From Terriglobia bacterium (GTDB taxonomy: Bacteria > Acidobacteriota > Terriglobia > 20CM-2-55-15), in assembly GCA_965218585.1 (NCBI GenBank), contig CBDCLE010000024.1, forward strand, positions 192,001 to 256,000: 64,000 nt of DNA, written 5' to 3'. The notes beneath the pieces are model-generated. The model did no database searches and was not told where the DNA came from. It saw only the letters and a list, made by a program, of their open reading frames with translations. Made by a program: the position numbers and the translations under genes. Below, in pieces: positions 12,317 to 30,702 of this stretch (positions are counted from its first letter, which is position 1; each line of letters opens with the position of its first letter).

Positions 12317-12416
12317 CCTCGGCGGTCACCCAAAACCGGCCAATGGTGGTCACCTGAAAACCGGCCAACGATAGAGGCCCGGGACATTGACAGCAGGCGG
12401 AGTAATCTCCGTCGGC

Positions 12417-14033: not shown

Positions 14034-14785
14034 ATCTCATTGAACTCCAGCGGGCTCTCCGACAACTCCGTCTCGGCGGCATCGCCGAGGTCCTGGAAAC
14101 ACGACTCCACCAGGCCCAGACCGAACCCATGGCGCCGATCGATCTGGTCTCCCGCCTAGTCTCCGACGAACTGGACCGTCGCAGCATCCGACTGCTGGAA
14201 CGCCGGCGGAAGCAAGCCCGGTTCCGCGATCCCCACAAGACGCTGGACAGCTTCGACTTCACTTTCAACAAGAAGATGAATCGCAGTCTGGTCTTCGATC
14301 TGGCCACGGCCGCATTCATCTCCAGACACGAAGACGCCTTGTTTCTCGGTCCACCCGGCACCGGCAAGAGTCATCTGGCTCAGGCCATCGGTCTGGCCGC
14401 CATCGAGCAAGGCTATCGGGTCGTCTACCGTGAAACCCATGCCCTTCTCGACGACATCGCCGAAGCCACCATCGACGGGACCCGTAAGGAGTTTATGGAG
14501 GCTCTGGCCACGGTCCCGTTGCTGATCATCGACGACCTGGGGATACGGAAGCTCCCCCCGACTGCAGCAGAGGAACTTCTCGAGATCGTTATGCGACGGT
14601 ATGAACGAACCAGCACGTTACTGACATCGAATCGGCCCGTCGAAGACTGGGGCAAACTACTCGGCGACAGCGCGGCTGTGACTGCGATGCTGGATCGGTT
14701 GCTCCATCACGGCCACATCCTCAAGTGCGGGCCTCGGAGTTGGCGCACCAAAACGGGCTTGCCGACTCCCCCACGAAAGGGGTAG
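14030..14785 (+). CDS. istB: IS21 helper ATPase IstB
   Basis: GPPGTGKSHLA, LLIIDDLG, TSNRP, LDRLLHH. Confidence 0.95.
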   Translation: MNLIELQRALRQLRLGGIAEVLETRLHQAQTEPMAPIDLVSRLVSDELDRRSIRLLERRRKQARFRDPHKTLDSFDFTFNKKMNRSLVFDLATAAFISRHEDALFLGPPGTGKSHLAQAIGLAAIEQGYRVVYRETHALLDDIAEATIDGTRKEFMEALATVPLLIIDDLGIRKLPPTAAEELLEIVMRRYERTSTLLTSNRPVEDWGKLLGDSAAVTAMLDRLLHHGHILKCGPRSWRTKTGLPTPPRKG

Positions 14786-14839: not shown

Positions 14840-15486
14840 ACTGGGAAGCGGCAGGAGAGGCAATGGAACGGACGCTTACGCTGCGTCCCAATTTCGCAGA
14901 GGCCCGCGCCTACTATTCGCATTTCCTCGTGATCGTGAACCGACCGCAGGACGCGGTTCTTCAGATGGAGCTCGCTATCGAGTTGGATCCATACAATGAA
15001 CTGATTCGATCGCTTTACGGTATGGTGCTGGCCGCGGCAGGGTACTCTGACCGAGCGATAGCGGACCTTCAGATTGCCTAACGCACTTCCCCTGGCAATC
15101 CGGTGATAAGGCGGGGGCTGTTTTTTGCGTTCTGCGCGAAAGGTATGTTTGCCGATGCGCTCGCTGCTCTGAGGACTGGCTATGCTGCGCTCGGCGACGA
15201 TGAGGTTGTTGCGGCTCTGGAACCGGGCACGGGCTATGCCGATGCGTTATGCCGGACGGCAGAGATGCTCGCTGACCGAGCGCGCTTGCGATATTCTTCC
15301 CCCTCCGATATTGCCTGGCTTTACGTCGCTGCTGGGGAAACGCAAGAAGCGCTCGAATGGTTCGAAGTCGGCTTTGAGCAGCGCGACCCCGACATCCCCT
15401 ACATTCGTGTTTGGTTCAATGAGTCGCTCCGCGATGAGCCACGATACCAGGCCATCGTGCGTCGTCTGAACTTCCCCTCCGAGTAA
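14840..15486 (+). pseudogene. C-terminal TPR region of a large kinase-type/TPR protein, truncated by the IS and carrying an in-frame stop
   Basis: ORFs 14725 and 15103 share a frame, split by TAA 15079-15081; TPR-like helices; ends SLRDEPRYQAIVRRLNFP. Confidence 0.75.
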
Positions 15487-15599
15487 ACCTTCCAAACCCG
15501 TCGCCCGTCAAAAGGGAACGAGAAGCCATACGACGTGTCAGCGGCGCACAGTGCTCGACTGACTGAACGAATCGCTATAACGGTCAGACCAGGCTTGGA

Positions 15600-15710
15600 G
15601 AACTGAAGGAGCGGGTGCCCGTGCCGTAAAGTAGGTCGTCCATCCCTGCCTAGCGATGAAATCCATGCTCGAGTGCTGTTAAATCATCTTGTTGGACGTT
15701 GAGAATTGGC
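15600..15710 (+). repeat. Junction element copy: kinase-type tail (ELKERVPVP*) + dif-like core
   Basis: gaactgaaggagcgggtgcccgtgccgtaa ... agtgctgttaa atcatc ttgttggacgt tgag. Confidence 0.75.
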
Positions 15711-15754
15711 CTAGATACGGGCGCCAACCTTCTGATTGCTTTACAAATTCCTCT

Positions 15755-17120
15755 GAGGTCGTTCCAATCGGTGTGTAAAAAGAGAAGGCGGTGTACGCTT
15801 TCGGTGAATTCGGAACCGTAAGCAATCCCGGCAGCAATCGGGAGAAAGGTACACCACCCATGAAGAAGAAGAACATACCGGCATCAGTGGCGTCAACGAA
15901 CGCGTATGAAGGTTTGGAGGACTGGGCGCGATCCCGGGTCCAAGTCTGGCTACAGGAGCTGCTCGAGGACGAAGTCACTCAATTTCTGGGTCGGGAAAAG
16001 TCGGAGCGGAGTCCGAATCGACGAGGATACCGGAACGGTCACGGGAAGCCGCGACGCTTCGCAATGATGAACGGTACGATGGAGGTTCGACGACCTCGGG
16101 TTCGAAACACCGCCGAGCGGTTCGAGAGTCAGATCCTGCCGTATTTTCGACGGAAATCGAAACAGCTGGGCGAGCTACTTCCCGATCTCTACCTCCACGG
16201 TCTGGCCACAGGGGACTTCGAGCAGGCCATGCGCGGACTGCTTGGCGCTGGCGCTCCGTTGTCGCGAGCATCGATCCAACGACTGAAATCGGCCTGGCAG
16301 TTGGAGTATGACGAGTGGGTCCAGCAGGACCTGTCCGGCCTCGAGGTCGTGTACCAGTGGGCAGACGGCTTGTACGTGAAAGCCGGGGATCGCGAAAGAG
16401 CGAGCGGCATTGCTGGTGATCATCGGAGCCTTGTCAGACGGGCGCAAAGTGGTGTTGGCCTGTGAGAGCGGGCAGCGGGAAAGCAAGGAGTCCTGGAGCC
16501 GCATTCTGCGCAATCTCCAGAGACGGGGCCTGAAGCTGGGACGGCTGACTGTCGCGGACGGTCACCTGGGCATCTGGTCCGCGCTGGCCGAGCAACAGCC
16601 CCAGGGCCAGGAACAACGCTGCTGGAACCACAAGTCGATCAACGTGGTCGATCATCTGCCGAAGACCGAGCAGCCCGCGGCCAGACAGCTGCTTCATGGG
16701 ATGGCCTTCGCGAACTCCCGCGCGGCCTGCGAACGAAAGCGGGATCAGTTCGTCCGCCGATATGAGAAGAACTATCCCAAAGCGGGTGAGACGCTGTTGC
16801 GGGACTGGGACCGGATGATTACTTTCTATGAGTTCCCGAAACAACACTGGGTGCATCTGAGAACAACCAACATCGTCGAATCGCCCTTCGACATGGTTCG
16901 CCTCCGCACCAACGCCGCTCGCCGATTCAAGCGTGTCGAGAATGCAACGGCAATGATCTGGAAGCTACTACGTGTCGCTGAGAAGGCTTGGCGACACTTA
17001 AAAGGATCCGAACTCTTACAAGAGGTCTATGATGGTCAGCAATTCGCTGACGGCATCAGAGTCGTGATGAAATCGAAGGCCGCCGCCTGATGACTTTTAC
17101 ACACCTTTTGTAATGACCTC
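15755..17120 (+). mobile_element. IS256-family element with 8-bp target duplication
   Basis: IRs gaggtcgttccaatcggtgtgtaaaa / ttttacacaccttttgtaatgacctc; ATTCCTCT at 15747-15754 and 17121-17128. Confidence 0.95.
15860..17090 (+). CDS. IS256 (Mutator) transposase split by one extra G near 16386-16389
   Basis: GYRNG, WADGLYVKAG, ADGHLG, QRCWNHK, LRTTNIVES; removing one G joins the two ORFs (KAGIAKERAALLVIIG). Confidence 0.9.
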
Positions 17121-17187
17121 ATTCCTCTCTTAGTATTCCTTACCGAGTCTTGCGCGGTTTTCGCGACACTCCATAACCCTGTCAAGA

Positions 17188-18222
17188 TCAATCGGTTAGG
17201 AAATGATACATTCCGAGAACGTTCAGGCCCACCCACTCGAAACCGGCCCAGTGACTGTACTCCTCCATCTTGATATCTTGCTGCATCTCCTCCAAAGACT
17301 GACCTGCGGTGATTCCGGCCCCAACCTGGTCTCGCAGCTTCTCCATGTATTCCCGCCACGCTCTGACGTCTTCCCGGGTACCGACCGGCCCGTGGCCTGG
17401 CGCAACGAAATCAAAGTCTGTTGCCAGCTGCTCCGCTTCTATGATTGCTGCCATCCACTCTTGGAACATCCCATCCTCGTAGTCCATTTCCCTGAACGGA
17501 AGCCGCCCGAACGTGACGTAGTCGACGACGAACATCACGTCGTCGTCAGGAAAAGTGATCATGCTTGAATCCATTGAGTGATTCATCTCGCCAACCCAGC
17601 TCATGTTCACCCGTTTGCCGCCCAAGCGGATCTGAATCTCGTCTTCATAGGTGATGTCCGGGGGGCGCACGAAGCTCACGGGTCCGCGCACAACTTCCGC
17701 GCCACTGAGCACGCCGTCCTTGTTCGCATCGAATCTAGCAAACTGATTTACATCCCCCACCTCGCTCTCCTCTACGGTGCCGTTACCATTGCTATCCAAC
17801 GCCGCCACCGGTGCATACTGCCCGACCACTTGGGACAGAGTGGTAAGAGCCGGTGGCATCGCCAGGTGTGACAGCATGTTGGTATGACCTACAAACCGGG
17901 CGGTATCTTGAAAGACGTCCCCGCCGGAGGCGTGGTCCCAGTGGTAGTGGCTGTAGATTACGTATCTGACGGGGACCCCGAAGCGGTCGCTGAATTCCTG
18001 CTTCAGCCACATCGCGAAATCGGTATTGATCGGGTCTGCCAGGACAATGCCCTCCGGCGTGACCAAGAAAACGGTGCCGTGGTTGTTGTTCATGGCCCTG
18101 TAGACGCCACCGGAAATGTGGCTAATAGACCGATTCGGTGCCGATTGGCCAACGCCCTCGGACGCAAGTACCACCGTTAGGACCAAGCCCACGAAAACCA
18201 TTCTTATCGTACTGATACGCAT
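17188..18222 (-). CDS. Secreted MBL-fold metallohydrolase with EF-hand-like insertion
   Basis: SHYHWDH, NHS, PGHG; DSNGNGTVEESE and DANKDGVLSGAE loops. Confidence 0.85.
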   Translation of the reverse strand: MRISTIRMVFVGLVLTVVLASEGVGQSAPNRSISHISGGVYRAMNNNHGTVFLVTPEGIVLADPINTDFAMWLKQEFSDRFGVPVRYVIYSHYHWDHASGGDVFQDTARFVGHTNMLSHLAMPPALTTLSQVVGQYAPVAALDSNGNGTVEESEVGDVNQFARFDANKDGVLSGAEVVRGPVSFVRPPDITYEDEIQIRLGGKRVNMSWVGEMNHSMDSSMITFPDDDVMFVVDYVTFGRLPFREMDYEDGMFQEWMAAIIEAEQLATDFDFVAPGHGPVGTREDVRAWREYMEKLRDQVGAGITAGQSLEEMQQDIKMEEYSHWAGFEWVGLNVLGMYHFLTD

Positions 18223-18300
18223 CTGGGTCTCCTCGTTCAACAGCAAGACCGCGCTGTGCTGTACTTTCTAGTTACTTGAACATGGGCACGGCTGATTCGA

Positions 18301-18418
18301 CGGGTGCCGGTACCGTAATTCTTTAAGGCTAACTCCCGATCATCTTCGCTGACACTAAAAACCCCATCTTTTAGCCCTTTTTTCACTGTCCGAGAAGATC
18401 GTTTGCGAGGACTTGAGA
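18301..18418 (+). repeat. Junction element copy: RVPVP* tail + degenerate cores
   Basis: cgggtgccggtaccgtaa ... ctgtccgagaa gatcgt ttgcgaggact tgaga. Confidence 0.7.
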
Positions 18419-18677
18419 ATTGCGTGCCGTTAACTCAGGACAATTCTCGATGTTAGACGCCCGATGAATTAGGGGAGGTTTTCAGAACTCCAACTCTTGA
18501 AATGCGCGGCTTAGCGCCTCGGTGATAGCCACGTCGAATGGCCCATCCGCCACGTTATCGCGCGATCAACTGGGGCGAGTTTTTTAGAAAGCGCGCGGCC
18601 GGCGACTACGCGGATTACGGCGACGAGATTCAGATCAGCCACCACTACGCATAGCGCCAACGGCAAAGGGGGACTCG

Positions 18678-20132
18678 TCAGTCCCCTCTTGTCACCTGAC
18701 CGATGAAGTCGACGATTACCGTCGAAACGCTCTCATCGGCCGTGCCGAGCGCGAGCAACTGTGACGAATGATTGTGTCCCAGGCTCTGCGCATAGCGCGG
18801 CATGACGCCATGCTCAACGACGAGCTCGTGCAACAGAATGGCCAATGAGCGCGTGTAGCGCGGCGCATCCCATTCCGCCGTCGTAAACAACACCGGAATA
18901 TCGGTGCTGCTGACATTGCCGGGGACGACGCGCTCGGCATACGCCGACGCATCCTCGCCAAAATACGCGCGCTCACCGGGCGTCGGATTGTCGAAATCGA
19001 ACGTATACGGGCCCGACATGAGGATCGCGCCGGCCGCGCGGATCGTGCCGGGCGGCATGAGCTCGGGCCTGAACACGTAAGTCGCCGAATGAAAGGAGCC
19101 CGTCGAGAGGCCCATGACGAATATCTGCTCCGGATCGCCGCCGTATTCATCGGCATGCTCGCTGAGCCAAGCCACGGCCGCGCCGACGTCTTGCGCGCCG
19201 GCAGGCCAAGGATGAGTTCCGGCGAGACGATAGTTCGACTTGACGCCGACTAGTCCTAAGCTTGCGAAATAGTTCGCAGCGGCCGCCGTTGATTCTTTGC
19301 TGCCGCCGATCAAGCCGCCGCCGTGAAAGACGACAATGACGGGCACGGGATCGTTCGAGTTGCGCGCCGTCGCCGTGTGAATGTCGAGTTGCTGGCGCTC
19401 GTGCGAGCCATAGGCGAGCCCTTCCACGACTTCGATCTCAGCCGCTTCGTAGAGGGTTGGTACGGGCGCCACGATCTGAGCCGTCTCGCCCGCGATCGGT
19501 CCATCGAACACGCGCCCGAAAGCTGCGAGGCGCTCCGCGACATCGGCCGGCAGGCCTTCGCGCGCGACATCGGCCGTGCTTAAGCCTCGTTCATCGGGCG
19601 GCGAGAAGCGCAATGTCTGGAGGGCCTTGTACGCGTCATCGCAGCGCTCCAAGCTCACCGACCTGCTGTGATACACGGGCGTGATCAATACGGGCGTTCC
19701 CGCTACCGCTCCGGCGCCGCCGGCAAGCGACACGCACAGATCCGGTCGCGATTCGGGGCTCAGCCGCCCCCACTCGAAGCGCCACTGCTGCGTAGCGCTG
19801 TCGGTGCACTCGCTCGCGTGTAGCGTGGCGCCGGGCTCGAGCGCCGTGGCGGCCAGGCAGCGATCGTATTCGGGCAAGGTTATCGCGCGCGTCCCGTCGG
19901 TGCGTGCAAAGATCTGATCCCCGAGCTCCGCGCCATATTTGCACGTATGCACCTGCAGCGGTTCGTCGACTCTCGCGTTTTCTCCGAAACCCCGGATATC
20001 GAGGCAATAACCACGGGCTTCATCGAGCGCGTAGGTCGTACGCAATAATCCGACGTCATCGGCCCAAGCGATCTGTGTGCCGATCGCGATGAGGAACAAC
20101 GCGGCGCCGCAACGGTAACTCTTGTTCAACAT
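18678..20132 (-). CDS. Secreted ricin-B-lectin + alpha/beta hydrolase (esterase) fusion
   Basis: GYCLDI, QQWRF lectin motifs; HGGG, GLSTG nucleophile elbow, HNHSS. Confidence 0.85.
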   Translation of the reverse strand: MLNKSYRCGAALFLIAIGTQIAWADDVGLLRTTYALDEARGYCLDIRGFGENARVDEPLQVHTCKYGAELGDQIFARTDGTRAITLPEYDRCLAATALEPGATLHASECTDSATQQWRFEWGRLSPESRPDLCVSLAGGAGAVAGTPVLITPVYHSRSVSLERCDDAYKALQTLRFSPPDERGLSTADVAREGLPADVAERLAAFGRVFDGPIAGETAQIVAPVPTLYEAAEIEVVEGLAYGSHERQQLDIHTATARNSNDPVPVIVVFHGGGLIGGSKESTAAAANYFASLGLVGVKSNYRLAGTHPWPAGAQDVGAAVAWLSEHADEYGGDPEQIFVMGLSTGSFHSATYVFRPELMPPGTIRAAGAILMSGPYTFDFDNPTPGERAYFGEDASAYAERVVPGNVSSTDIPVLFTTAEWDAPRYTRSLAILLHELVVEHGVMPRYAQSLGHNHSSQLLALGTADESVSTVIVDFIGQVTRGD

Positions 20133-20285
20133 GACCTTCCCCCTGGCTGCCTATTTGAACTGTGGGGCAGTTCACCTAACCGGCGTCACGCCAAGCTGTC
20201 GCATCCCGCCCCCAGCTTTCTATGTTCATATACCATAGCAACAAGCTGTCAGTTCGTTGCTAGAAAATCGAGGTCGGTGGACAAT

Positions 20286-20797
20286 ATGAAACGGGGACTC
20301 CTTATATCGTTGGTCTTCGTCTAGGCGCCGGCCGCCGCCCAGCAAAACGTGCCGTTTGCGAACGGCATCCCCGTCGCATCGGAGCTCAAGGTGTCGCCCG
20401 TGCCCAAGACCTGCGAGACCGCCGAAGGGCAGGATATCCGCGTCGCGGTCGTCGCGCGCGACCTCGCGAATTCCTACAGCTTCGCGTTCTGATCGTCAAC
20501 ATGGAAACGATCAATCAAGATCGTGTGCGGCTGCTCGATTCACCGGCTTACCCGAATGTCAGTGAGGCTTACGCTGAGACCTTCGACAGGCAAAAGAGAC
20601 TGGCAGGAACCTTCGATGTCTGGGTTTCATCACATGCCGGTCATTTCGGACTTCACGATAAATTCGAGCCTGGAGACTCTTACGATCCGGAGCGCTTCGT
20701 CGGGATCGACGAATATTTGGAACGCATTCAGCAGTACGAGCAGATCTATCAAGATAAGCTCAAACAAGAACGGCAAGATCGATTGACCAAAGAATGA
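20286..20797 (+). pseudogene. Chimeric remnant: 5' of a PQQ sugar-dehydrogenase-like gene joined to 3' of a subclass B3 MBL-like gene
   Basis: MKRGLLISLVFV*APAAAQQ..ETAEGQDIRVAVVARDLANSYSFAF, then LIVNMETIN..YPNVSEAYAETF..DVWVSSHAGHFGLHDKF. Confidence 0.6.
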
Positions 20798-20818
20798 GGT
20801 CAAGTCCTGAGAAATCAT

Positions 20819-20950
20819 GCCAGCTCAACCGGTCGCTGCAACACATGCATTAAATGTCTCTGCCGGAGTTGCGAACTCCAGAGTCTTGCGTGGCCGTTGG
20901 TTGAGCCTTCTTGCAATGAAACTAAGACTTGCCTTAGGTTCGCACCGGCT
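20819..20950. mobile_element. Possible IS30-family end remnant
   Basis: gccagctcaaccggtcgctgcaacac resembles IS30-type terminal sequences (from memory); no transposase present. Confidence 0.35.
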
Positions 20951-21017
20951 GATCCTTGACTTCAGGGCTGAGTGTGAAAACATGCTGGTCAAACAACATG
21001 TCAAAGGAGCCTGACCG

Positions 21018-21290
21018 ATGAGTGCGAAACGAAAGGTCGAGATTTTCAGTGCCGGTTGTCAGCCGTGTGCGGCCGCTGTCAAGCTTGTTCACAGCCTAGC
21101 AGGTGATGCCGACGAAGTAATCATCTTGGATATGCATGACCCCGACACTGCCGTCCGAGCCAAAGAATACAGAATCGAAAGGCTCCCTGCTGTGTTCGTA
21201 AATGGTCATCCTGCCGATTGTTGCGCAGGCGTCGGCGATGGAGTGAGTGAACAAGCTCTCAGGAATGCGGGTGTCGGCAAAGCGCTCTGA
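21018..21290 (+). CDS. Small thioredoxin/glutaredoxin-fold protein
   Basis: VEIFSAGCQPC, LPAVFVNG, CC; RBS aaggag. Confidence 0.85.
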   Translation: MSAKRKVEIFSAGCQPCAAAVKLVHSLAGDADEVIILDMHDPDTAVRAKEYRIERLPAVFVNGHPADCCAGVGDGVSEQALRNAGVGKAL

Positions 21291-21346
21291 AGTCGAGGAT
21301 CGACGTAGCGGCCCGGATAACTGCTGCCATTAGAGGAAAACATCCC

Positions 21347-21463
21347 ATGAGCGAAGAACTTCGAGACAGACAGATTTCGGAAATCATCAAGCTCCTCCAA
21401 AGAATCGCTGAAGCACTTGAAAGAACAGCTGAAATAGAACACTTAGAACACACTGACACTTGA
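21347..21463 (+). CDS. Candidate 38-aa small protein
   Basis: RBS gagga; MSEELRDRQISEIIKLLQRIAEALERTAEIEHLEHTDT. Confidence 0.4.
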   Translation: MSEELRDRQISEIIKLLQRIAEALERTAEIEHLEHTDT

Positions 21464-21510
21464 AAAATGGCGAAATCGACGGAAGCTGCCGTTATTGGGA
21501 CTAAGGAGCA

Positions 21511-21685
21511 CAGAACTGATTCGAGGAACTGAAGGAACGGGTGATTGTGGAGGTCAAGTCCTGAGAAATCATCTTGTCGGACGTTGAGCATTGGCGAATT
21601 ACTGAGGTTTTTCAACGTCCGGAAAGTCGTTTGTCAGGACTTGAGAGTTTTCTTGCGTATAAATCCCATCTGTAGTCAGATTTAC
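21511..21685 (+). repeat. Best-preserved junction element: kinase-type tail + two inverted dif-like cores + promoter-like block
   Basis: QN*FEELKERV; agtcctgagaa atcatc ttgtcggacgt ... acgtccggaa agtcgt ttgtcaggact; cttgcgtataaatcccatctgtagtcagatttac. Confidence 0.85.
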
Positions 21686-21720
21686 GCACCTTACGGTCCG
21701 CTTCGACATACACTAAAAGA

Positions 21721-22737
21721 ATGTACCGGCGTCAGTTTCTTAAGGCATCAGCATTGATAGGCGGTGGCCTCGTAGGCACTCCTGTATTCAACACCAACGC
21801 TCAGCAATCCGGTCAAACTGGTACCAGCGAGCAACCCATTCGCATCACCCTGGGTGGGTATGGCCCATCAACGTCAAGTTTCAGCCAGGGATTGAAGCAA
21901 ATCGGCGATCGCCTCGGCGCCAGATTTGGCGACGATGTCGAGATCGAATATCTCTACAATATTCTAGATCTTGGTTATGAGGAAGCAGGCGATCTGACAC
22001 GGCTAGTTGATAATGGTGTGCTCTCGCTCGCGTACTTAACCATGTTCGACGAGATTCCCGCGTTGGAAGTCGCCGCGCTTCCATTTCTGTTTGCAAACAG
22101 CGCCGCAGCAAGGGTTGCGATGGATGGAGCGCTAGGACAGTCAGCAATAGATACTATCGAGGCTGATACGAACTTTCGCGTTTTGGGATTTTTCGAAAAT
22201 GGCTTTCGCCATGTATCCAACAGTGTCAGGCCGGTTCACAGTCCGGTCGACTTGAAAGGCCTCTCAGTTCGCGTTCTTGGTGTGCAAGCCAGAACATTTG
22301 AATTGCTTGGAGCCAACCCGAAGGTCATGCCTCTATCAGCGGTATTCGATGGCCTTCAGTCTGGCGAATTGGATGGTCAGGAAAACCCTTTTGAAAACGT
22401 TGTCAGCTACAACCTCTACCACTCACAGCGTTATTACACTGAGACTTATCATTCGTACTTGTCTCGACCAATTTTCGTTCACCGACCTTCATTTGAAGTC
22501 TGGCCTGATGCACTGCAAATGGAGATGCGCACGGCCGTCAAAGAAGCGGTAACCCTTCAGCGGCAGCTGCATGATCAGGCAGAAATCGATTCTGCCGAGA
22601 TTATTCGTGAGGCTGGTGGGGAAATTGTTACGCTCACGCCGCAGCAACGCCAGGCATTTGTCGATGCCGTTGCGCCTATTTACGCAGACGCTCAGAATCA
22701 ATACGATCGGGTACTGCTGAATCTGGTAGGTCTATAA
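21721..22737 (+). CDS. TRAP transporter substrate-binding protein (DctP), Tat signal
   Basis: RRQFLK, ENGFRHV, DLKGLSVRV, LDGQENP. Confidence 0.92.
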   Translation: MYRRQFLKASALIGGGLVGTPVFNTNAQQSGQTGTSEQPIRITLGGYGPSTSSFSQGLKQIGDRLGARFGDDVEIEYLYNILDLGYEEAGDLTRLVDNGVLSLAYLTMFDEIPALEVAALPFLFANSAAARVAMDGALGQSAIDTIEADTNFRVLGFFENGFRHVSNSVRPVHSPVDLKGLSVRVLGVQARTFELLGANPKVMPLSAVFDGLQSGELDGQENPFENVVSYNLYHSQRYYTETYHSYLSRPIFVHRPSFEVWPDALQMEMRTAVKEAVTLQRQLHDQAEIDSAEIIREAGGEIVTLTPQQRQAFVDAVAPIYADAQNQYDRVLLNLVGL

Positions 22738-22869
22738 TCACCAATTGTCAGTGACTGATCAGCTCTTAAAAGACGTTCGTCCCAAAGACTTCCTGTCATC
22801 ATGTTCAATACGAACTGTGGACCAGAACTGACCTCGGCGGATCTGTTGCGGAGGCAACCGAGTGACTCC

Positions 22870-23006
22870 GAGATTGTCGTTGTCTTGAACTGGCTCGAAG
22901 AACTGAAGGAACGGTGACTGTGCCGTAGAGTCGGTTGTAGCCCTTCCCGCCCTCAACCTCTCAAAAGCCAATCTCAAGTCTTGGTGTCCGGGTGCTGGAC
23001 GGTCAG
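22870..23006 (+). repeat. Junction element copy: EIVVVLNWLEELKER tail + degenerate core
   Basis: Tail 22870-22928; linker resembles 15630-15650; ctcaagtcttg..gctggacggtcag. Confidence 0.7.
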
Positions 23007-23084
23007 GAAAAAACTCGCCGCGACGGGCACTACATTAGTGTTAACACGCCCTAGAGAAGCATTGGGGAGTTTGGGAGGACGACT

Positions 23085-23726
23085 ATGCGCCTGAGTCCAG
23101 TCATCGCGGCAACGTTAAGTCTGTTTATTTCGTGCCCATCCTTCGCGCAAGGCTGGATCGAGTATGCCAGTCAGGAGGATTTCTTCACCGTCAATCTCCC
23201 GGGTGAACCTGAGGTGCAAGACATCACCTACGACACGGAATATTTCATCACCTTGCCGGGGCGTGTCTATAGCCACGAGGATGGCCTGAACCGCTATTCG
23301 GTCACTGTGGTCGATTACACGGACGCCGCAAAAAGACACGCAGAGCGAGTGGTGAGCTGCCGAGCTGCCTTGAGAGATGGGGACAGTTGCCGCGATTACA
23401 CGGCGACTGATCTTCGGGCAGCGATCGACTATGCGACGTGGAATTTCCTTCAAAGAGAGGCTGAGCTGACGCATTTTGTGTACTATATCGCGGACTTGGT
23501 TGAAGGACGTTCTTTGCACCTCACCAACCCCGATGGATCCCGCACCTTCTCCGCAATCAATATGCACGAAAACCGTCTCTATATCCTGGAGGGAACCGTG
23601 CCCGCGGATTCACCACCGCCGTTAGTGTTCCAGCAATCCTTGGGATTCCTCGACCAGGAGGGCAAAAGAATTCGCTATGAGTCGGCCTACTCCAACGGAT
23701 TTCCAGCACCTCCCCGTACCCGATGA
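23085..23726 (+). CDS. Hypothetical secreted protein
   Basis: RBS ggagg, signal peptide, 213 aa. Confidence 0.8.
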   Translation: MRLSPVIAATLSLFISCPSFAQGWIEYASQEDFFTVNLPGEPEVQDITYDTEYFITLPGRVYSHEDGLNRYSVTVVDYTDAAKRHAERVVSCRAALRDGDSCRDYTATDLRAAIDYATWNFLQREAELTHFVYYIADLVEGRSLHLTNPDGSRTFSAINMHENRLYILEGTVPADSPPPLVFQQSLGFLDQEGKRIRYESAYSNGFPAPPRTR

Positions 23727-23794
23727 CGGTCGGCCGAGCGACTCGACGAGAGCGATACTACTGAAACAGTTTCTGTGATGTATGGGAGGTAAGG

Positions 23795-24223
23795 ATGCAG
23801 TTTAAAGTGTTGAGCCTTGCGGCTATTTGTGCGGTTGCCTTAGCCGTGCCGGCTTTGGCGCACCATTCCCACGGCAACTACGACGCATCGACGTGGACGC
23901 TTTATGAGGGGACGGTCAAGGAAGTGCACTTGATCAACCCGCATTCTTGGGTCTATCTCGAAATCACGGACGAAGAAGGTCAGGCCGCAGTGTGGGCTTT
24001 AGAAGCCACCGGTCCCGGCGGTCTCCTACGCAACGAAATCAAGCCCGAAGACGTCAGACCGGGCGACACCATCAGAGTGCGGTGTCATCGGCTCAGGGAC
24101 GGCTCCAACGGCTGTCTTCTGGGGTTTGTGACACCCTTACACGGTGATCTGGCACGCGGCCACGGAATCGAGAAGGAAATGGGACTAGCTAGGCAGACGA
24201 ACGCATTGACGAGGACGCCTTGA
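23795..24223 (+). CDS. DUF6152-like secreted protein
   Basis: ALAHHS, INPHSW, WALE pattern. Confidence 0.75.
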   Translation: MQFKVLSLAAICAVALAVPALAHHSHGNYDASTWTLYEGTVKEVHLINPHSWVYLEITDEEGQAAVWALEATGPGGLLRNEIKPEDVRPGDTIRVRCHRLRDGSNGCLLGFVTPLHGDLARGHGIEKEMGLARQTNALTRTP

Positions 24224-24243
24224 TGCAGATTGGCAGTTGGTGA

Positions 24244-24390
24244 TCGGGGTGGGGAGTGGGGGAGACGGGAATGCTGGAAATAGGCAAGGAAGCCGATATC
24301 TCCATCCTGGATAGAAACCCATTGTTAGACATCAGCCATGTGGGGACTGTGTCCGCTGTGATGACAAATGGAAATTATTATGAAGCGAAC
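24244..24390 (+). pseudogene. C-terminal remnant of an amidohydrolase
   Basis: GMLEIGKEADISILDRNPLLDI..VMTNG. Confidence 0.65.
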
Positions 24391-24562
24391 CTCTTTGGCG
24401 CGCTGCTGACTTTGGGTCCGGCAATTAGTGATCCGGGGCCGGTTTCGAGATCGTGGCGAAATAGGCGAAATAGTTGTTGAAAGCGTACCGCCAGCACTAA
24501 ACGATTACGAAAGACTGAACGCCGCCCGCGCCCACGCTGCCCCACCTTCGCAAGCGAAGAGC

Positions 24563-25222
24563 TTAGACCGCCTCTTTCTTAGTGCCCTGCTGCTTCTTGG
24601 CCCAGTAATCGGGCGCCGCTTTCGATTTCTCGAGCGCCTCGGGGCTTTCGAAGCCAGGAGCCATCGAAGCCGACGAAATGCCAGCCATGACCTGGTGGTG
24701 GTCGATGTTCAGCAACCGTAACCAACTCTGCTGGCCGTACGTGAGACCAATGGCGCAACCCAGCTCCACCATCTCCGGTTCGCTGAAGTGCTTGTACATT
24801 CTTTCCCAGAAAGCATCGCCGGTGTCGATGCGCCAGACAATCGCCTCGGCATAGGCGAGCGCAGCCTTCTGACGGTCGGTGTATTTGGCCGACCTCTCGA
24901 AGTTCATCAAGTCGTCGATCTGACGTTCGTTCACACCTGCCTTCTGGCCTTTGATCGAACGCTGATTGCCGCAAAACTCGCAGACGACGGAACGGGAGAC
25001 ATAGACGCGGCACAATTCCTTAACTGCATGATCGAGAATGCCGTTGCGAAAAATGTTGTGCCAGGAGTCGGCGAAGAACCAGAAACAATCCGGCACATGG
25101 GCCCGAACTGCGCTGCTTTCGGGGCGAGGGGTACCTTCTCTCACACAGCGATCCATTTCCTCGCGCATCTTTGCAGTCATGTCCTCGAGCGCGACATAGC
25201 TGATCCTTTGTTTGTCTGCCAT
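24563..25222 (-). CDS. Carboxymuconolactone decarboxylase/AhpD-like protein
   Basis: KELCRVYVS..CEFC, AALAYAEAI, HFSEPEMVEL. Confidence 0.85.
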   Translation of the reverse strand: MADKQRISYVALEDMTAKMREEMDRCVREGTPRPESSAVRAHVPDCFWFFADSWHNIFRNGILDHAVKELCRVYVSRSVVCEFCGNQRSIKGQKAGVNERQIDDLMNFERSAKYTDRQKAALAYAEAIVWRIDTGDAFWERMYKHFSEPEMVELGCAIGLTYGQQSWLRLLNIDHHQVMAGISSASMAPGFESPEALEKSKAAPDYWAKKQQGTKKEAV

Positions 25223-25368
25223 TGGTGTCCCTCCTACCGTCACGTCGGTTTGTCTGTTCGAACCTGTGCGGATCACCCAGAACCGCCCTGGGAAGAATAG
25301 CCGAGATTATGAGCGTTGTGCAGGTATTTGGTAATCGGTGGGACCGTTGGCCTCATAAAGCCGGGCGT

Positions 25369-26055
25369 TCAGGCCACCGGAGTCAATCCCAATACGATGT
25401 CAAATCGCGCTTCCAGTTCGCCGATCTGCGACTCCGGGATCGGAGCAAAATCGACGATTATGGTTTTGCGTGCCTCCGGATCGGTGACTCGGGCCAAAAG
25501 GTTGTCGCGTTCATTCTGCGGCGCCCCCTTGACGTAACACTGCGTCGTCCACTGTTCGTGGCCTTTCATCTTGACCGCAAAATGGATGTGCGGCGTTCGG
25601 TTTCCATAAGACACCGGCTTGATCGTGCGGAAATAGTATTCGCCCGCGGAACCTGTCAGAAAGCGTCCAAACCCCTGGAAGTTCTGGTCGCGCTCCCCGT
25701 TGGCGTCGCTGTCGCTATGCAGGTAGACTCCGTTGTGATCCACTTGCCAAATTTCAACGACAGCGTTCCTCAACGGGCCACCTGAAGCGTCCAGCAGTCT
25801 CCCTGTCAGGTGGGTCACTTCACCGATCGCAGGTGTGATGCCATCGTTCACCGTCAGCAGGTCATTGTCGGTGTCCAGTGGAAGGCGGTCCGGATAAAAC
25901 GGCCCCTCTCCCTGGGGTGCTGTAAGTGTGAGTTGCTCGGCGAACAGGCCGGGAACGTTGAAGAGGCTGTGCACACTGAGCCCGGCAACTCCGCACGCCA
26001 TGCCTCGAAGAAAAACGCGCCGACTGTCGAGCAGTTTCGATTCATGCATCGTCAT
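25369..26055 (-). CDS. Intradiol ring-cleavage dioxygenase family protein, Tat signal
   Basis: SRRVFL, EGPFYP, VEIWQ..GVY, RTPHIH. Confidence 0.9.
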   Translation of the reverse strand: MTMHESKLLDSRRVFLRGMACGVAGLSVHSLFNVPGLFAEQLTLTAPQGEGPFYPDRLPLDTDNDLLTVNDGITPAIGEVTHLTGRLLDASGGPLRNAVVEIWQVDHNGVYLHSDSDANGERDQNFQGFGRFLTGSAGEYYFRTIKPVSYGNRTPHIHFAVKMKGHEQWTTQCYVKGAPQNERDNLLARVTDPEARKTIIVDFAPIPESQIGELEARFDIVLGLTPVA

Positions 26056-26255
26056 GCTCCTTGGAGCGTAGAGACGCCCGTTTTGATCAGAACTAAATGT
26101 AAGAAAGCTGGTGAAAGTCTATCGACGAATGGAATTGGAAGCAACGAATTCTCGACTTCCAACGTAGGGGATCCAAGCACCGGACCCGGCCATTACCTAA
26201 TCCGCGACATGAATTGAATTAGAATGCACGTGACAAACATCAAGAGGGGGAGCAA

Positions 26256-26684
26256 ATGAAGAGATTCTTGACCAGCTTTTGGACTGCCCGCGTCCTGGTG
26301 ATCCTCGGTTTCCTGCTCGGTTGGAACAGCTTAAGTGCAACAGCGAGGCACATCGGGAACCCTCAGACCTTGCTCGTCGGGGGACTAGAGACGCACAGCT
26401 GGCACCATTTCTTTAGGGAACTTGGGGGCGATTTCGGTGCAATGATTGCCATCCTGGTGATCTTGTTCGCGGCCCAGGGTGTCCGAACGCCGGTCAGCTG
26501 GTGGGTAGTGCTCGTTCTCATGATCGGATTCTACGCGCCCTTCTGGGTCGGCACGCCATTCATGCCCGAACTGGGCGCACCCAGTATGGGAGCCGAAGTG
26601 AATCACCTGATGATGGCCATACCCGCTTTGCTCGGCTGTTTCTTGGCGAAAAGACACTTTCGAGGGGACGCAGCAGGGGTGTAG
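26256..26684 (+). CDS. Hypothetical 4-TM membrane protein
   Basis: RBS; hydrophobic segments with HSWHHFFRE. Confidence 0.75.
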   Translation: MKRFLTSFWTARVLVILGFLLGWNSLSATARHIGNPQTLLVGGLETHSWHHFFRELGGDFGAMIAILVILFAAQGVRTPVSWWVVLVLMIGFYAPFWVGTPFMPELGAPSMGAEVNHLMMAIPALLGCFLAKRHFRGDAAGV

Positions 26685-26880
26685 CTGGTCAGATCCGGGT
26701 GGCGGAGCCAGGTGCTGGGGCAACAGCGACCGTGTTGCGACTCGCCTTCCCAACGCTTATCGGTTGGTCGCTCGTCTTGAGAGGTTGTCATTTATGATTG
26801 CGTTGATGTTTCGAATTCCGACGACTATGTTTATTGGCGCGAACCAATTTGATGCCGGCTTCGCTCGCTCCCAGTCGAGC

Positions 26881-26931
26881 ATTGTCCTGAACTGGTTCGA
26901 GGATCTGAAGGAACGGTTGCCGGTGCCGTAA
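26881..26931 (+). repeat. Kinase-type tail remnant IVLNWFEDLKERLPVP*
   Basis: Its TAA overlaps the next ATG (TAATG). Confidence 0.75.
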
Positions 26932-27914
26932 TGGGCAACTACGTTGTCGATCTGAATGACGTTCGTCGAGCAGCGGCTCGCATTGCCCCTCACGTTCACC
27001 GTACTCCAGTTATCACGAGTAAGACTTTAGACGACCTGGCGGGCCGAAGCTTGTTCTTCAAATGCGAGAACCTGCAACGTTGCGGTGCCTTCAAGGCCCG
27101 GGGCGCGGTGAACGCCGTGCTGTCCCTCGGTGACGATCAAGCCGCACGGGGTGTCGCTGCGGACAGTAGCGGCAATCACGGCCAGGCGCTGGCGTATGCT
27201 GCCAGAATTCGCGGCATTGCGGCACACATAGCGATGCCCAGTAATGCCCCGATCGTCAAGCAACACGCTGTCAGGGGCTATGGCGGACGGGTGTATCTGA
27301 GCGAACCGACCCTCGAAGGACGCGAAGCGACTCTTGCCACAGTACTTGAACAGACCCACGCCACACGCGTTTCCGCCTTCAACGACCCAGCCATCATTGC
27401 CGGGCAGGGAACCGTCGCGCTAGAGCTGTTGGATCAGGTGGACAACCTGGACGCGCTGGTGGTTCCTGTTGGAGGTGGTGGTCTGATTTCGGGGGTTGCG
27501 CTCGCAGCCCGGGGATTGAACCCTCGAGTCCGCATCTTCGCAGCCGAGCCCCACGGCGCGGACGACGCATATCGCTCCAAAGCCGAAGATCGCTACGTTC
27601 CGTCGCTCGATCCACAAACAGTTGCCGACGGACTGTTGGTCAGCCTGGGAGACTTTACCTGGCCGGTGTTACGCGACTTGGTCGAAGCCGTGATCCGTGT
27701 AAGGGATGATGAAATCCTGCGCGCCATGCGGCTACTGTGGGAACGCATGAAACTGGTAGTTGAGCCAAGCGGGGCGACGTCGGTAGCCGCAACTCTATCT
27801 CGGGAGTTCGCCGAGCTCACAGGTCTTGGCCGAGTCGGCGTAGTGCTCAGTGGCGGCAACGTGGACCTCGACAACCTGCCGTTTTCTGATACAACCACGA
27901 ACGATTCCGAATAG
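26931..27914 (+). CDS. PLP-dependent serine racemase / Ser-Thr dehydratase
   Basis: KCENLQRCGAFKARGA, SSGNHGQ, PVGGGGL, SGGNVD. Confidence 0.93.
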   Translation: MGNYVVDLNDVRRAAARIAPHVHRTPVITSKTLDDLAGRSLFFKCENLQRCGAFKARGAVNAVLSLGDDQAARGVAADSSGNHGQALAYAARIRGIAAHIAMPSNAPIVKQHAVRGYGGRVYLSEPTLEGREATLATVLEQTHATRVSAFNDPAIIAGQGTVALELLDQVDNLDALVVPVGGGGLISGVALAARGLNPRVRIFAAEPHGADDAYRSKAEDRYVPSLDPQTVADGLLVSLGDFTWPVLRDLVEAVIRVRDDEILRAMRLLWERMKLVVEPSGATSVAATLSREFAELTGLGRVGVVLSGGNVDLDNLPFSDTTTNDSE

Positions 27915-27980
27915 TTGTCTCGTTGGTAGGGAACTGCCTGTCCAGGCCTCGCACTCGGATCGACATCTCCCTTGAACGAA

Positions 27981-28095
27981 TTGTCGGAAGTTGAGGATTG
28001 GTAAATTACCTGCGGTTTTCAACCGCCGGCAAACCCGTTTATCTTCACCCGAGAAGCTGCTTGCGTATAAATCTCATCTGTAGTTGAATTCACAA
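27981..28095 (+). repeat. Junction element copy: half core + second core + promoter-like block
   Basis: About 115 nt align by eye with 21574-21685, including cttgcgtataaatc(t/c)catctgtagt. Confidence 0.85.
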
Positions 28096-28130
28096 AGATT
28101 TTTGAAGCTCACTTCCGCACGTTAATTACG

Positions 28131-29603
28131 ATGCACGTGATGAAGGAGAAAAACACTTTTTCAGGAATGAAACGGCGGGCAAGAATGAGATTATCCGTCG
28201 CTCTCGGCCGAGCACTTTTGTTGCTTGTGATGTCGACGGGCCTGGGCAACGCCGCCCCGACTCAGAATGCAGGTGAAGCACGGAACGTCGAGTTCGTCGG
28301 GCATCATGACCTTCAGGGTCGTGATTCGCTACAGGTGACGGCCAAAGGGGATGACGCGAACGGCGATTGGGTGTACGTAGGGCATTCGGATAACACCTGG
28401 GACCAGACCGAGGGCTTCAATCCCATCACCAACCAACTGGAATGGAACGGGACTTCGATACTGAACGTCTCCGATCCAGCCAATCCGGAATTGATCTGGC
28501 ACATACCGAATACCGTCAGCGCCAACTCCCGCTCGACTTCAGTCGTGTATGACTACATTTTTGATTCCGATCCGACGGGGAGAGACTATCTGATACGAAA
28601 CTCTCAGGGAGAGGGGTTTGCGAAGTTTCAGATCTTCGATATCACTTCCAGGGACACGAATCCGTCCGAGATTCGCTTGGTTGGGGAGATCACCCGGACA
28701 CCGGAAGATTCCTGCGGGCCGGGGTGCGGCGGTTTGCTAACGGCCGTGCACAAAGGCTGGTGGTCGCCCGAGACCGGCCTGTACTACAGCGCAGCCAACG
28801 AGCCGGGTTTTCGCGACGGAAACCACCTGGTGATTTTCGATCTCGCGGACCCAGCAAACCCGCAGTTCGTCGGAAGGGCCTGGTTGCCGGGGCAGCGAAC
28901 GAGCGAACCCGAGACTTCGAACGGGAACAACTGGCACCATCCGATCGTGGATGAAGAAAACGGCCGGGTCTACGGAGCCTATCTGGGTGGAGGAGATGTG
29001 GTTTCCTTTGACATCGAGGACCCGTCCAATCCGGAGCTGGTCTGGCGTATCGATACCGAGCCACCGGGAAGAGGAACCCACACCGTCGCACCCGTATTCT
29101 ATGATGACGTCCCCAACTTCGGGCCCGATTCCTTGCCGAGGACGTATGCCCTGGTTGCGGATGAAGCCACTGGTCCTGACATAGGGTGTGCCGATCCGGT
29201 TAGAACGAAAGTCTACATGTTCGACATGACTGCCGCCGACGAAACCGGCGTCCCCTACCCGGTGGATACATGGCAGGTTCCGGATGCCGATTTCTGTGAG
29301 AAGGGCGGCCGTTTCGGCCCTCATCAATTTGCTGAGACGATCAATGGAGTGCTTAACAGATTCGAAGACAAGATCGCTTACATTCCCTATTTCAATGCGG
29401 GATTGAGGATCGTCGATGTTTCGGATCCTTACAACATGATCGAAGTCGGCTATTACGTTCCCAGCCCGAATGAGAACTCTCACCCTATCCAACCCGGTCA
29501 GCCGACCGTCATCCAGATCAACGACGTGGCTATCGATCGTCTGGGGTTGCTCTATGCGTCCGATAGGGTAGGTGCAGGTCTCTTTGTTCTGAGGCGAGAG
29601 TAG
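28131..29603 (+). CDS. Secreted LVIVD-repeat beta-propeller protein
   Basis: Repeated ILNVSDPANP / VIFDLADPANP / LRIVDVSDP; GRFGPHQ; true start may be downstream. Confidence 0.85.
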   Translation: MHVMKEKNTFSGMKRRARMRLSVALGRALLLLVMSTGLGNAAPTQNAGEARNVEFVGHHDLQGRDSLQVTAKGDDANGDWVYVGHSDNTWDQTEGFNPITNQLEWNGTSILNVSDPANPELIWHIPNTVSANSRSTSVVYDYIFDSDPTGRDYLIRNSQGEGFAKFQIFDITSRDTNPSEIRLVGEITRTPEDSCGPGCGGLLTAVHKGWWSPETGLYYSAANEPGFRDGNHLVIFDLADPANPQFVGRAWLPGQRTSEPETSNGNNWHHPIVDEENGRVYGAYLGGGDVVSFDIEDPSNPELVWRIDTEPPGRGTHTVAPVFYDDVPNFGPDSLPRTYALVADEATGPDIGCADPVRTKVYMFDMTAADETGVPYPVDTWQVPDADFCEKGGRFGPHQFAETINGVLNRFEDKIAYIPYFNAGLRIVDVSDPYNMIEVGYYVPSPNENSHPIQPGQPTVIQINDVAIDRLGLLYASDRVGAGLFVLRRE

Positions 29604-29658
29604 TGCGACACCTCTGCGTCTCTCTAAAATGACGACAAGGTGTGGCCGAAGTTCGTTC

Positions 29659-30702
29659 TCACTGTTGTCTCATCACTTCGACACGCAACGGCGACCACGC
29701 CATGCCATCCGGGCTCTCATGAGCACTCGCCAGAACCCCTGGCTCTGACTCTCCAAGAGAATCCAGATCGAACATGCGGATGGTGCCCTGTCCGGGATCG
29801 CTCACGAAGGCTACGCCATTGTGGATCAACACTCCGAAGTTACCGTCCTGAGGTGTGCCGTCGCGCAATTCCACCTCGGCCAGCATCACGCGTGACGCCA
29901 CGTCGAAGAGGCGTAAGTATTGGGGAACAGGGGGCCCCCCACCGCCGCCGTTGGGCACGATCGCGCGTCCGCCAGGACCGATGTCGACGCGTCCCGCGGA
30001 GCGTCGCGAAGCGACTGTCGCCACAACCTTGAACGACCCAGTGTCGATGACGGAGATAGTCTCCTCCCCTCGGTTCGCAACCCACACTTCTCCGCCGTCG
30101 GGAGTGACGGATATGCCCTCGGCCCCCGTCCCTGTGGGAATTACCAAGGGGGAGCGATCCTCCTCCAAAAAGATGACCGACAGCGTTCCTTCCCCGCCGC
30201 GACTGGTCACATACGCGTGGAGCCCGTCAGGGCTCAGCCGTAACATGTGACCTTCCCGACCCCCGGTCGGATAGGTTCGCACGACTTCCATTCGGTTCAG
30301 GTCTATCAAAGCGATTTCGTCGGAATCCTGCATCGTCGCTAACGCGTGCTGTCCGTCCGGGTGGAAAACGGCCGTGTGAGGGCGCGAGTTCGGACCGAGG
30401 TCGATGCGGCCCATGATGCGTGCGTCCGGTATATCGATCAGAATCACGTGCCTGCCTGGGTTGTTGTTGGGTCCGTACTCGGCGGTCATGGCTAGACGTC
30501 CGTCCGGGGACACCGCCACCTCGTGGGGGATGAGGGGGCCTACCGGTAGACGCGCAGCCTCAACACGGGTTTCAAGATCGATGAGAGAGACGCTTCCGCC
30601 GCTACGGTTGGCCACGACGAGTGTGCCTTCCTGGGCGAGGGCGACGACACACGGTAAGAATAGAATCGCGGAAGCCAGGACCAGGCAGGCTATCGATCGC
30701 AT
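29659..30702 (-). CDS. YVTN/YncE-type beta-propeller protein
   Basis: VVANR..VSLID, PHEVAVSPDG, EGISVTPDG; signal peptide from ATG 30702. Confidence 0.85.
   Translation of the reverse strand: MRSIACLVLASAILFLPCVVALAQEGTLVVANRSGGSVSLIDLETRVEAARLPVGPLIPHEVAVSPDGRLAMTAEYGPNNNPGRHVILIDIPDARIMGRIDLGPNSRPHTAVFHPDGQHALATMQDSDEIALIDLNRMEVVRTYPTGGREGHMLRLSPDGLHAYVTSRGGEGTLSVIFLEEDRSPLVIPTGTGAEGISVTPDGGEVWVANRGEETISVIDTGSFKVVATVASRRSAGRVDIGPGGRAIVPNGGGGGPPVPQYLRLFDVASRVMLAEVELRDGTPQDGNFGVLIHNGVAFVSDPGQGTIRMFDLDSLGESEPGVLASAHESPDGMAWSPLRVEVMRQQ

Follow-up and report, generated by a model that had tools for sequence, protein, structure and literature searches.

A nested palindrome of 91 nt lies at positions 21554-21644 of a 64 kb stretch of the chromosome of a Terriglobia bacterium (the window, to which all copy counts below refer). 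We found that this palindrome is the best-kept copy of a block of about 0.2 kb, of which there are five copies (B1 to B5), each on the + strand, in a span of 12.5 kb that runs from 15.56 to 28.1 kb. Our favoured interpretation, which we hold tentatively and at somewhat less than an even chance, is that the blocks are att-type junction repeats left by the serial insertion of small gene modules. It is drawn from the combination of five co-oriented blocks in 12.5 of 64 kb, the same gene tail in each of them, and unrelated cargo of unlike composition in between.

A repeated block behind a gene tail

A preliminary description of this DNA had reported a nested palindrome with inverted cores, and the sequence, the repeat search and the DNA fold agree with it. 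The outer arms (21554-21568 and 21630-21644) are 15 nt long and 93% complementary; the inner arms (21573-21587 and 21612-21626) are also 15 nt long and 87% complementary. Folding of 21550-21648 as single-stranded DNA (ssDNA) yields -23.7 kcal/mol, whereas 200 dinucleotide shuffles give -9.8 +/- 2.4 and none of them is as stable (z -5.9). As RNA, the palindrome gives z -4.0 on the + strand and z -5.4 on the - strand. The palindrome is real and far beyond chance. The ssDNA fold has 28 pairs, 11 of them outer, 11 inner, and only 6 over the 12 central positions of the left arm. This concentration of pairs suggests that the boxes, not the whole arm, are the part that is kept. The hairpin starts at a stop codon and has TTTTCTT on its 3' side. 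Its two arms agree at 29 of 36 positions, a likeness no greater than each of them shows to its counterparts in the other blocks.

The palindrome is not a free-standing site. It sits inside a larger repeated block, which the preliminary description had missed, and this changes what needs explaining. Each block begins with a gene-tail relic of some 70 nt (...LNWFEDLKERLPVP-stop), which in the alignment is followed by a shared frame: first a linker (0-50 nt), then the left unit, the loop of 24 nt (ATTGG..AATTAC.TG.GGTTTT), the inverted right unit and GAGA. B3 and B5 additionally carry the motif CTTGCGTATAAATCnCATCTGTAGT..ATTyAC after GAGA. The blocks extend over 15562-15753 (B1), 18253-18420 (B2), 21487-21685 (B3), 22864-23052 (B4), and 26865-26932 plus 27961-28093 (B5). 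A profile built from the five relics themselves recovers them as five + strand matches (E 5e-11 to 3e-16) and finds nothing below E 1 in the rest of the window; matches to the full-block profile range from E 8e-20 to 4e-38. Over the unit-pair part, the blocks are 38-64% identical. The relics, which hold the last 15-25 or so codons of the same kind of gene, are the best-conserved part (67-86% pairwise identity, against 58-84% for the left units). Between right units, identity is 83% for B2-B3 and 74% for B3-B5; the remaining right-unit pairs, alignable over just 6-27 positions (64-100% identity), were left unused. The relics of B4 and B5 read as a protein end, those of B1, B2 and B3 with small changes. 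All are of about equal length, and this uniformity together with their identity is more in keeping with a defined repeat than with stumps left by random deletions.

In B5 the relic and the unit pair are separated by a 984-nt gene for a pyridoxal phosphate (PLP)-dependent enzyme (26931-27914). The stop of the relic overlaps the start of this gene (TAATG, 26929-26933) and the block linker comes directly after its stop, so that a bare open reading frame (ORF) sits exactly between relic and linker.

The gene that left these tails may be PD40/TolB-like, which sequence searches did not confirm. An Atlas lead in the same direction is sub-threshold, with scores of 0.82-0.86 and one neighbouring cluster that has PD40 in 39% of its members. 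An ORF across the palindrome has no relative among proteins of 38-123 aa, and the relic peptide has no match at E 0.01 or better among longer proteins. In a full HMMER scan the peptide retrieves only itself and a repetitive 2728-aa protein with nine copies of VVTNWFDDLQKKL, and PD40 is not among the four Pfam matches of that protein.

The units recur outside the palindrome. Three further 28-mers with 11-6-11 spacing had been listed at 15672, 18386 and 28022; all are present, and both the profile and a longer-register alignment indicate that the copies are truly homologous across sites. The unit profile was built from four units, which match it by construction: E 1.8e-11 at 21552-21590 (+), E 1.9e-10 at 15666-15705 (+), E 5.5e-10 at 18381-18419 (-) and E 2e-9 at 21609-21647 (-). 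The copy at 28016-28054 reaches only E 3.5 on this profile, and its homology shows in the longer register, where 28010-28093 and 21602-21685 are 71% identical over 84 nt. Absent from the earlier list are a half unit at 20796-20818 (E 0.0044 at 20798-20818) and a weak match at 39332-39356 (E 0.0012). Reading by eye, the AA-N6-TT spacing is visible in 5 of 10 unit positions, namely the left units of B1 and B3 and the right units of B2, B3 and B5; the left unit of B5 has N4 spacing, and four positions are too decayed to score. Kept spacing says little on function, because the copies are related by descent. The 8-9-nt boxes of the units are confined to the blocks apart from one site at 60545. A dispersed operator motif for a transcription factor, one of the identities against which the site was to be checked, is therefore unlikely.

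Among the five unit pairs only that of B3 folds better than its shuffles; the other four have decayed (Table 1). Single units show no fold beyond shuffles either, six single-unit stretches ranging from z +1.7 (15660-15712) to z -0.46, with z -0.13 for 18378-18428. The losses differ between blocks: the right unit in B1, the left unit in B2, both outer boxes in B5 and nearly everything in B4. In every readable block the left centres are of the ATCATC type and the right centres of the RNYCGT type. Since this difference is common across blocks, the imperfect and asymmetric pair predates the multiplication of the block.

The preliminary description had proposed a covariation analysis across copies, and we carried it out on the four alignable unit pairs with the structure of B3 (28 pairs, 99 cells), a count of low power in which B3 fits by construction. 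Cells are paired in 68.7% of cases, against 68.5 +/- 2.2% when the 3' partners are shuffled among sequences, and 276 of 500 shuffles match or exceed the observed share. The covariation score is 0.137 against 0.148 in the shuffled sets, and changes on both sides occur in 3 pairs where 2.6 are expected. Hence these four pairs give no sign of pairing maintained beyond shared descent. Rfam has no match at gathering score across the whole window. With E up to 1 over 15500-33100, it gives two matches only, to archaeal snoRNA models far from the blocks.

Genes and insertion sequences between the blocks

Housekeeping genes stand on both sides of the array, with alaS, recX, lptE, holA and phoH-ybeY-corC-era before it and cysG, thiS and phosphate genes later on. 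The accessory region begins at 11.6 kb with HicA-, HicB- and ribbon-helix-helix-like ORFs, followed by an IS21-family istA/istB pair (12387-14785), a frameshifted fragment of a TPR protein (14860-15486), and then the five blocks (IS, insertion sequence). Between the blocks are found an IS256-family element, a metallo-beta-lactamase-fold gene (-), an esterase gene (-), a C-terminal fragment of a subclass-B3 metallo-beta-lactamase, a thioredoxin-like gene, an orphan DctP binding protein and a 4-kb group (unknown, DUF6152, CMD, dioxygenase, unknown), and then comes an LVIVD-repeat protein. The genes that adjoin the blocks are unrelated, and Pfam and NCBIfam reveal no paralogues among them. The segments are 1.2-4 kb long, hold several genes in both orientations and include three kinds of IS. 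Their composition is a mosaic, GC content going from 0.506 (DctP) to 0.623 (esterase) around the 0.572 of the window. Scans of 64 window ORFs reveal no recombinase or transposase that does not belong to one of the three IS families.

The IS elements are visitors of the array and did not give rise to the units. At the right end of B1, the IS256-family element has its own inverted repeats (15754-15780 and 17095-17121, 27 nt, 85% complementary) with TTCCTC on both flanks, 50 nt to the right of the left unit, and we rejected the units as ends of this element. The lactamase fragment ends in a stop codon at which the half unit (20796-20818) starts. Directly after it, 20819-20935 encodes the C-terminal 36 residues of an IS30-family transposase on the - strand. 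The break at 20818 could have been taken for a crossover within the 6-nt centre, a reading that we rejected as it is the end of the IS30-family relic. By tblastn, the 36-aa peptide matches 1365 plasmid records; among the 10 matches listed, 2 fall under 'IS30 family transposase' and 2 under 'integrase catalytic region' genes. IS30 is reported to insert preferentially into nearly palindromic hot spots (PMC9333248). A known IS end had been named as another identity to check, and the units are not ends of the IS elements present: IS256 has its own repeats and the IS30 relic merely cuts a unit.

We found no relatives of the block in a plasmid collection or among the genome-contig matches listed. 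In the plasmid collection, blastn with 21540-21700 gives no match, and 15500-18500 matches only IS256-type transposase DNA (9 records). A 22-position pattern of the unit hits at least 75 loci in genome contigs of unrelated organisms, all those listed scoring at most 21 bits against 33-40 for true copies. Only part of the pattern matches at these loci and we rejected them as chance.

Several observations concern the genes themselves. The transposase of the IS256-family element is split into two overlapping ORFs (15791-16465 and 16410-17090). The lactamase fragment (20501-20797) keeps the C-terminal 90 or so residues and scores far below the NCBIfam cut-offs for named families. The small HicB-, HicA- and ribbon-helix-helix-antitoxin-like ORFs occupy 11617-12374, directly behind era and on the left border of the accessory region; their Pfam matches are weak (E 0.002-0.02), HicA being read by eye. 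In the housekeeping part, the frame of a sirohaem synthase (cysG-like, 53565-54979) is split, with an ORF of 358 aa that breaks off inside the methylase domain and one of 114 aa that holds the remainder (profile positions 155-211 of 212). Intergenic DNA at 56629-56661 and 56734-56766 contains the two copies of an exact direct repeat of 33 nt (CTGTTTAGCACATTTTTAACGTGGAGCAATTTG), 105 nt apart.

Table 1. Positions of the blocks, their parts and associated features in the window.
Feature	Position	Strand	Basis or remark
B1 gene-tail relic, ...GELKERVPVP-stop (KERVPVP at 15598)	15562..15630	+	relic profile E 2.3e-14
B1 unit pair	15669..15753	+	left unit 15669-15703, 84% identical to B3 left; right decayed; z +1.3
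IS256-family insertion sequence at right end of B1	15754..17121	+	own 27-nt inverted repeats
B2 gene-tail relic, ...KERVPVP-stop (at 18300)	18253..18319	+	relic profile E 5.4e-11
B2 unit pair	18336..18420	+	left decayed; right 18386-18420, 83% identical to B3 right; z -0.44
Half unit, cut inside 6-nt centre	20796..20818	+	pairwise alignment, 23/23 identical to 21550-21572
End relic of IS30-family element cutting the half unit	20819..20935	-	tblastn of 36-aa peptide
B3 gene-tail relic, ...FEELKERVIVEVKS-stop (at 21523), stop codon inside left unit	21487..21551	+	relic profile E 4.9e-12 and six-frame motif match
Nested palindrome, unit pair of B3, sole intact pair	21554..21644	.	repeat search, DNA z -5.9
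B3 left unit, boxes TCAAGTCC ... GGACGTTGA around ATCATC centre	21554..21588	+	profile E 1.8e-11
B3 loop between units, about 24 nt	21589..21610	+	alignment; B3-B5 conservation about equal to arms
B3 right unit, inverted copy, centre AGTCGT, 1-nt deletion	21611..21644	-	profile E 2e-9; 29/36 identical to left unit
Promoter-like motif CTTGCGTATAAATCCCATCTGTAGTCAGATTTAC	21652..21685	+	36 nt upstream of DctP start 21721
B4 gene-tail relic, ...IVVVLNWLEELKER-stop (at 22888)	22864..22929	+	relic profile E 5e-15
B4 unit pair, strongly decayed, left outer box TCTCAAGTC still visible	22964..23052	+	alignment; z +0.45
B5 gene-tail relic, ...IVLNWFEDLKERLPVP-stop (at 26890)	26865..26932	+	relic profile E 2.7e-16
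B5 unit pair, decayed	27961..28058	+	alignment; z -0.45
Second copy of promoter-like motif	28060..28093	+	38 nt upstream of gene starting 28131

Insertion junctions as the favoured reading

If the blocks are insertion junctions, a site-specific recombinase whose gene lies beyond the window would have added small gene modules behind one gene tail, either one at a time or by accretion, and each event would have left another copy of tail plus site. The dyad-symmetric units, with boxes TCAA(C)GTCC ... GGAC(G)TTGA and an inner AA-N6-TT, would likely be what the recombinase binds in duplex DNA, and the long hairpin would simply result from two of them lying head to head. Most block copies are decaying relics by now. 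Recombination would thus have made the array, with the units rather than the gene tail as its probable site of action.

The closest precedent that we can offer is that of the Dehalococcoides islands, which stand in tandem behind ssrA, each bounded by a direct repeat of the 3' end of the gene; some of them lack integration genes, and they are discussed in terms of 'cis-mobilizable elements' and 'accretion' (PMC3146451). Direct repeats of a gene 3' end also bound each segment here, in the form of the five co-oriented relics. The array shares with the islands co-oriented gene-tail repeats in a short stretch, accessory cargo of odd composition of the strain-specific type, and units without integration genes. 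It departs from them in having neither an intact target gene nor an integrase in the window, in its segments of only 1.2-4 kb, in a repeat of about 200 nt and 38-86% identity where theirs is short and exact, and in the inverted unit pair at each junction.

A number of points weigh against insertion junctions. No intact gene with this tail (...NWFEELKERVPVP) lies to the left of the first block, where IS21 and the TPR pseudogene are found instead. No integrase, Xer or other site-specific recombinase domain occurs among the 64 window ORFs scanned. Block identity over the unit-pair part is low, so that the insertion events would be old and the sites mostly dead. An inverted site pair per junction is not typical of simple att repeats. 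The PD40/TolB-like identity of the tail is tentative, with a sub-threshold Atlas lead in its favour and no confirmation by the sequence searches. Finally, the analysis covers the window of a single genome, and the mobility of the modules is putative.

Other explanations and what the blocks would mean

The palindrome might be a non-autonomous element akin to a miniature inverted-repeat transposable element (MITE) or a REPIN, i.e. inverted ends of about 35 nt around a short loop, with a transposase elsewhere and the local copies as old insertions. We regard this as unlikely, though not negligibly so. The anatomy of B3 is right for it: 91 nt in all, with inverted ends as alike as noted above, so that the palindrome has the terminal inverted repeats and the small size of a MITE. 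A REPIN consists of two inverted repetitive extragenic palindromic (REP) sequences with a spacer between them (PMC3337134), and B3 likewise has two inverted units of about 35 nt, a short spacer and an intergenic hairpin of about 90 nt. IS elements have inserted into two copies, as reported for REP sequences (PMC1525189), and the window has further long palindromes at 7488-7583, 56863-56950 and 32735-32862. But the homology does not stop at the inverted ends: it continues into the gene tail on one side and into the promoter-like motif on the other. No target-site duplication is seen by eye at B3. The five copies share one orientation, occupy 12.5 of 64 kb and are absent from the housekeeping parts. 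Copies of this kind, few, clustered, co-oriented and embedded in a larger block, are unlike those of REPINs, and single units do not fold whereas REP sequences form hairpins. REP and REPIN sequences number tens to hundreds of copies dispersed over a genome that has a RAYT gene. General ORF scans of the window reveal no Y1/RAYT or matching transposase. The loop is as well conserved between B3 and B5 as the arms are. The sequence of the unit is unrelated to the inverted repeats of the IS256-family element, and the IS30-family relic simply cuts one unit.

Two of these further palindromes form a family of their own, with the core AAAAAG(T)GGGGACAG...CTGTCCCC(A)CTTTTT. Both measure about 90 nt and lie in housekeeping regions, with arms of 31 nt that are 94% complementary at 7488-7583, right at the end of holA, and arms of 29 nt that are 100% complementary at 56863-56950.

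Alternatively, the block could be a cis-regulatory cassette, in which the hairpin ends or insulates upstream transcription, CTTGCGTATAAAT...ATCTGTAGTCAGAT provides a promoter and a palindromic operator, and copies spread with the genes they serve. This too seems unlikely to us. The promoter-like motif occurs three times in the window where none is expected, its copies lying 36-59 nt upstream of the + strand genes 21721, 28131 and 32977. The third copy follows a different and even stronger hairpin (32735-32862, z -7.9), so that the succession of hairpin and motif recurs although the hairpin sequences are unrelated, and the B3 hairpin starts at a stop codon and has TTTTCTT after it. Yet consensus scans of 21300-21800 and 27850-28200 give neither a sigma-70 promoter nor an intrinsic terminator, no Rfam family matches, four of the five hairpins have decayed, and the minus-strand genes next to B1 and B2 turn their 3' ends towards the block, which leaves it nothing to regulate. 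The repeated gene tail would also be left unexplained. A sigma-54 reading of the TTGC of the motif was rejected by eye, the GG expected 10 nt upstream being absent in all three copies. Among the genes concerned, a twin-arginine signal is found by NCBIfam only in the DctP protein of 21721, and the ORF at 32977 has a signal-like hydrophobic N-terminus read by eye.

The hairpin at 32735-32862 has a 24-bp stem, and its start coincides with the stop codon of the gene that ends at 32743. After it, the third motif copy (32885-32918) is of the CTTGCnTATAA...ATCTGTA form. Two ORFs of about 340 aa overlap there, neither with a Pfam family: one at 32890-33921 (-), of low complexity and probably spurious, and one at 32977-33999 (+), with a start that resembles a signal peptide by eye.

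It is rather improbable, in our estimation, that the blocks are functionless debris, a single intergenic region multiplied through local duplication and homologous recombination in unstable IS-rich DNA, whose palindrome is an accidental inverted micro-duplication. The decay of the blocks is uneven and looks neutral, and the region holds IS21, IS256 and IS30 elements and several gene fragments, as such a history would have it. However, only the block is repeated and never its neighbouring genes, the five copies share their left limit and their orientation, and the asymmetry of the unit pair is ancestral and shared.

The preliminary description had proposed Xer-type sites in duplex DNA or an attC-like hairpin. 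The homology of the copies holds and a role in duplex recombination may stand; the identity with Xer/dif sites and the attC-like hairpin find no support. We compared ten 28-mers, i.e. five sites on both strands, with three published dif seeds, which share the conserved XerD arm TTATGTnAAnT (PMC3025954). One arm had been likened to the left arm of the B. subtilis dif, and it does match 8 of 11 positions of the sequence given in that source; the other had been called unlike the XerD arm, and indeed 3-7 of 11 positions match. The best identity to any seed is 16 of 28, between the reverse of the B1 and B3 left units and the B. subtilis seed, and 44 of the 127,946 28-mers of the window reach at least 16. 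In dif sites, positions 7-12 are complementary to 17-22 (PMC3025954); the units form 2-4 of these 6 pairs and the three seeds 6, 4 and 5. No canonical dif is present in the window, where 3 sites have the conserved core at 3 mismatches against 3.5 expected. Cumulative GC skew climbs across the window and shows no switch where the array lies, and instead of a single copy at a replication terminus there are several clustered ones. The likeness to a XerC-type arm thus appears real but shallow, and little else in the sequence would fit a dif site.

We see as very improbable an array of Xer-type, dif-like sites of 28 bp with an 11-6-11 structure, alternating in orientation and flanking modules that the host XerC/XerD shuffle, as in the dif modules of Acinetobacter. 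Such an array would account for the parsing of the units as 11-6-11 with an inner AA-N6-TT, for their + - + - alternation along B1-B5, by which gene segments are flanked by inverted units, as Acinetobacter dif modules are flanked by inverted sites (PMC6449649, PMC13141974), and for the partial match to the B. subtilis seed. It does not fit the poor XerD arms, the number of window 28-mers that score as high, the tendency to fewer pairs than in the seeds, the block homology that far exceeds 28 bp, or the window itself, in which the host dif and xer genes were not found. The array resembles the Acinetobacter modules (PMC10132070, PMC6449649) in its small modules of one to few genes in either orientation, its alternating inverted 11-6-11-like sites and the IS elements that target these sites. 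It differs in arms that match the XerD arm no better than chance, in being chromosomal where they are on a Rep_3 plasmid, and in having two sites 24 nt apart per junction with homology well beyond the sites. One might speculate, and we hold it improbable, that the array is a chromosomal counterpart of dif-module shuffling with its own family of dyad-symmetric sites, unrelated to canonical dif, and that the paired sites at the junctions are the footprint of this process; integrase-less modules of one to few genes, including metallo-beta-lactamase-fold ones, would then be exchanged at these inverted pairs through a trans-acting recombinase.

Weakest of all, and barely credible to us, is an attC-like site that folds as a single strand in a cassette array without its integrase: 91 nt is the right size, there are four alternating boxes with unpaired central bases, elements on the same strand are arrayed after gene ends, and imperfect palindromes of similar size do punctuate an accessory-gene array as in integron arrays or clusters of attC sites lacking integron-integrases (CALIN), but the structure is kept in only one of five copies, pairing and covariation equal those of the shuffled controls, the segments are multi-gene and bidirectional, and no integron integrase occurs among the 64 window ORFs. 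The 5' end motif RYYYAAC and the 3' end motif GTTRRRY of attC are also absent, the ends of the palindrome reading GGTCAAG and CTTGAGA.

The palindrome itself has an ordinary origin: it is made of two inverted unit copies inside a decaying local repeat. Were the blocks only decayed debris, their value would be a negative one, namely that the dif-like and attC-like looks of the palindrome stem from two head-to-head copies of one unit and do not denote a new recombination system. If, as we tentatively favour, they are recombination junctions, the blocks would be traces of the way in which this bacterium gathers small accessory genes in a single place on its chromosome, with metallo-beta-lactamase-fold hydrolases, an esterase and an orphan TRAP binding protein as cargo. 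Their sequence could then also serve to track down the same modules in other places.

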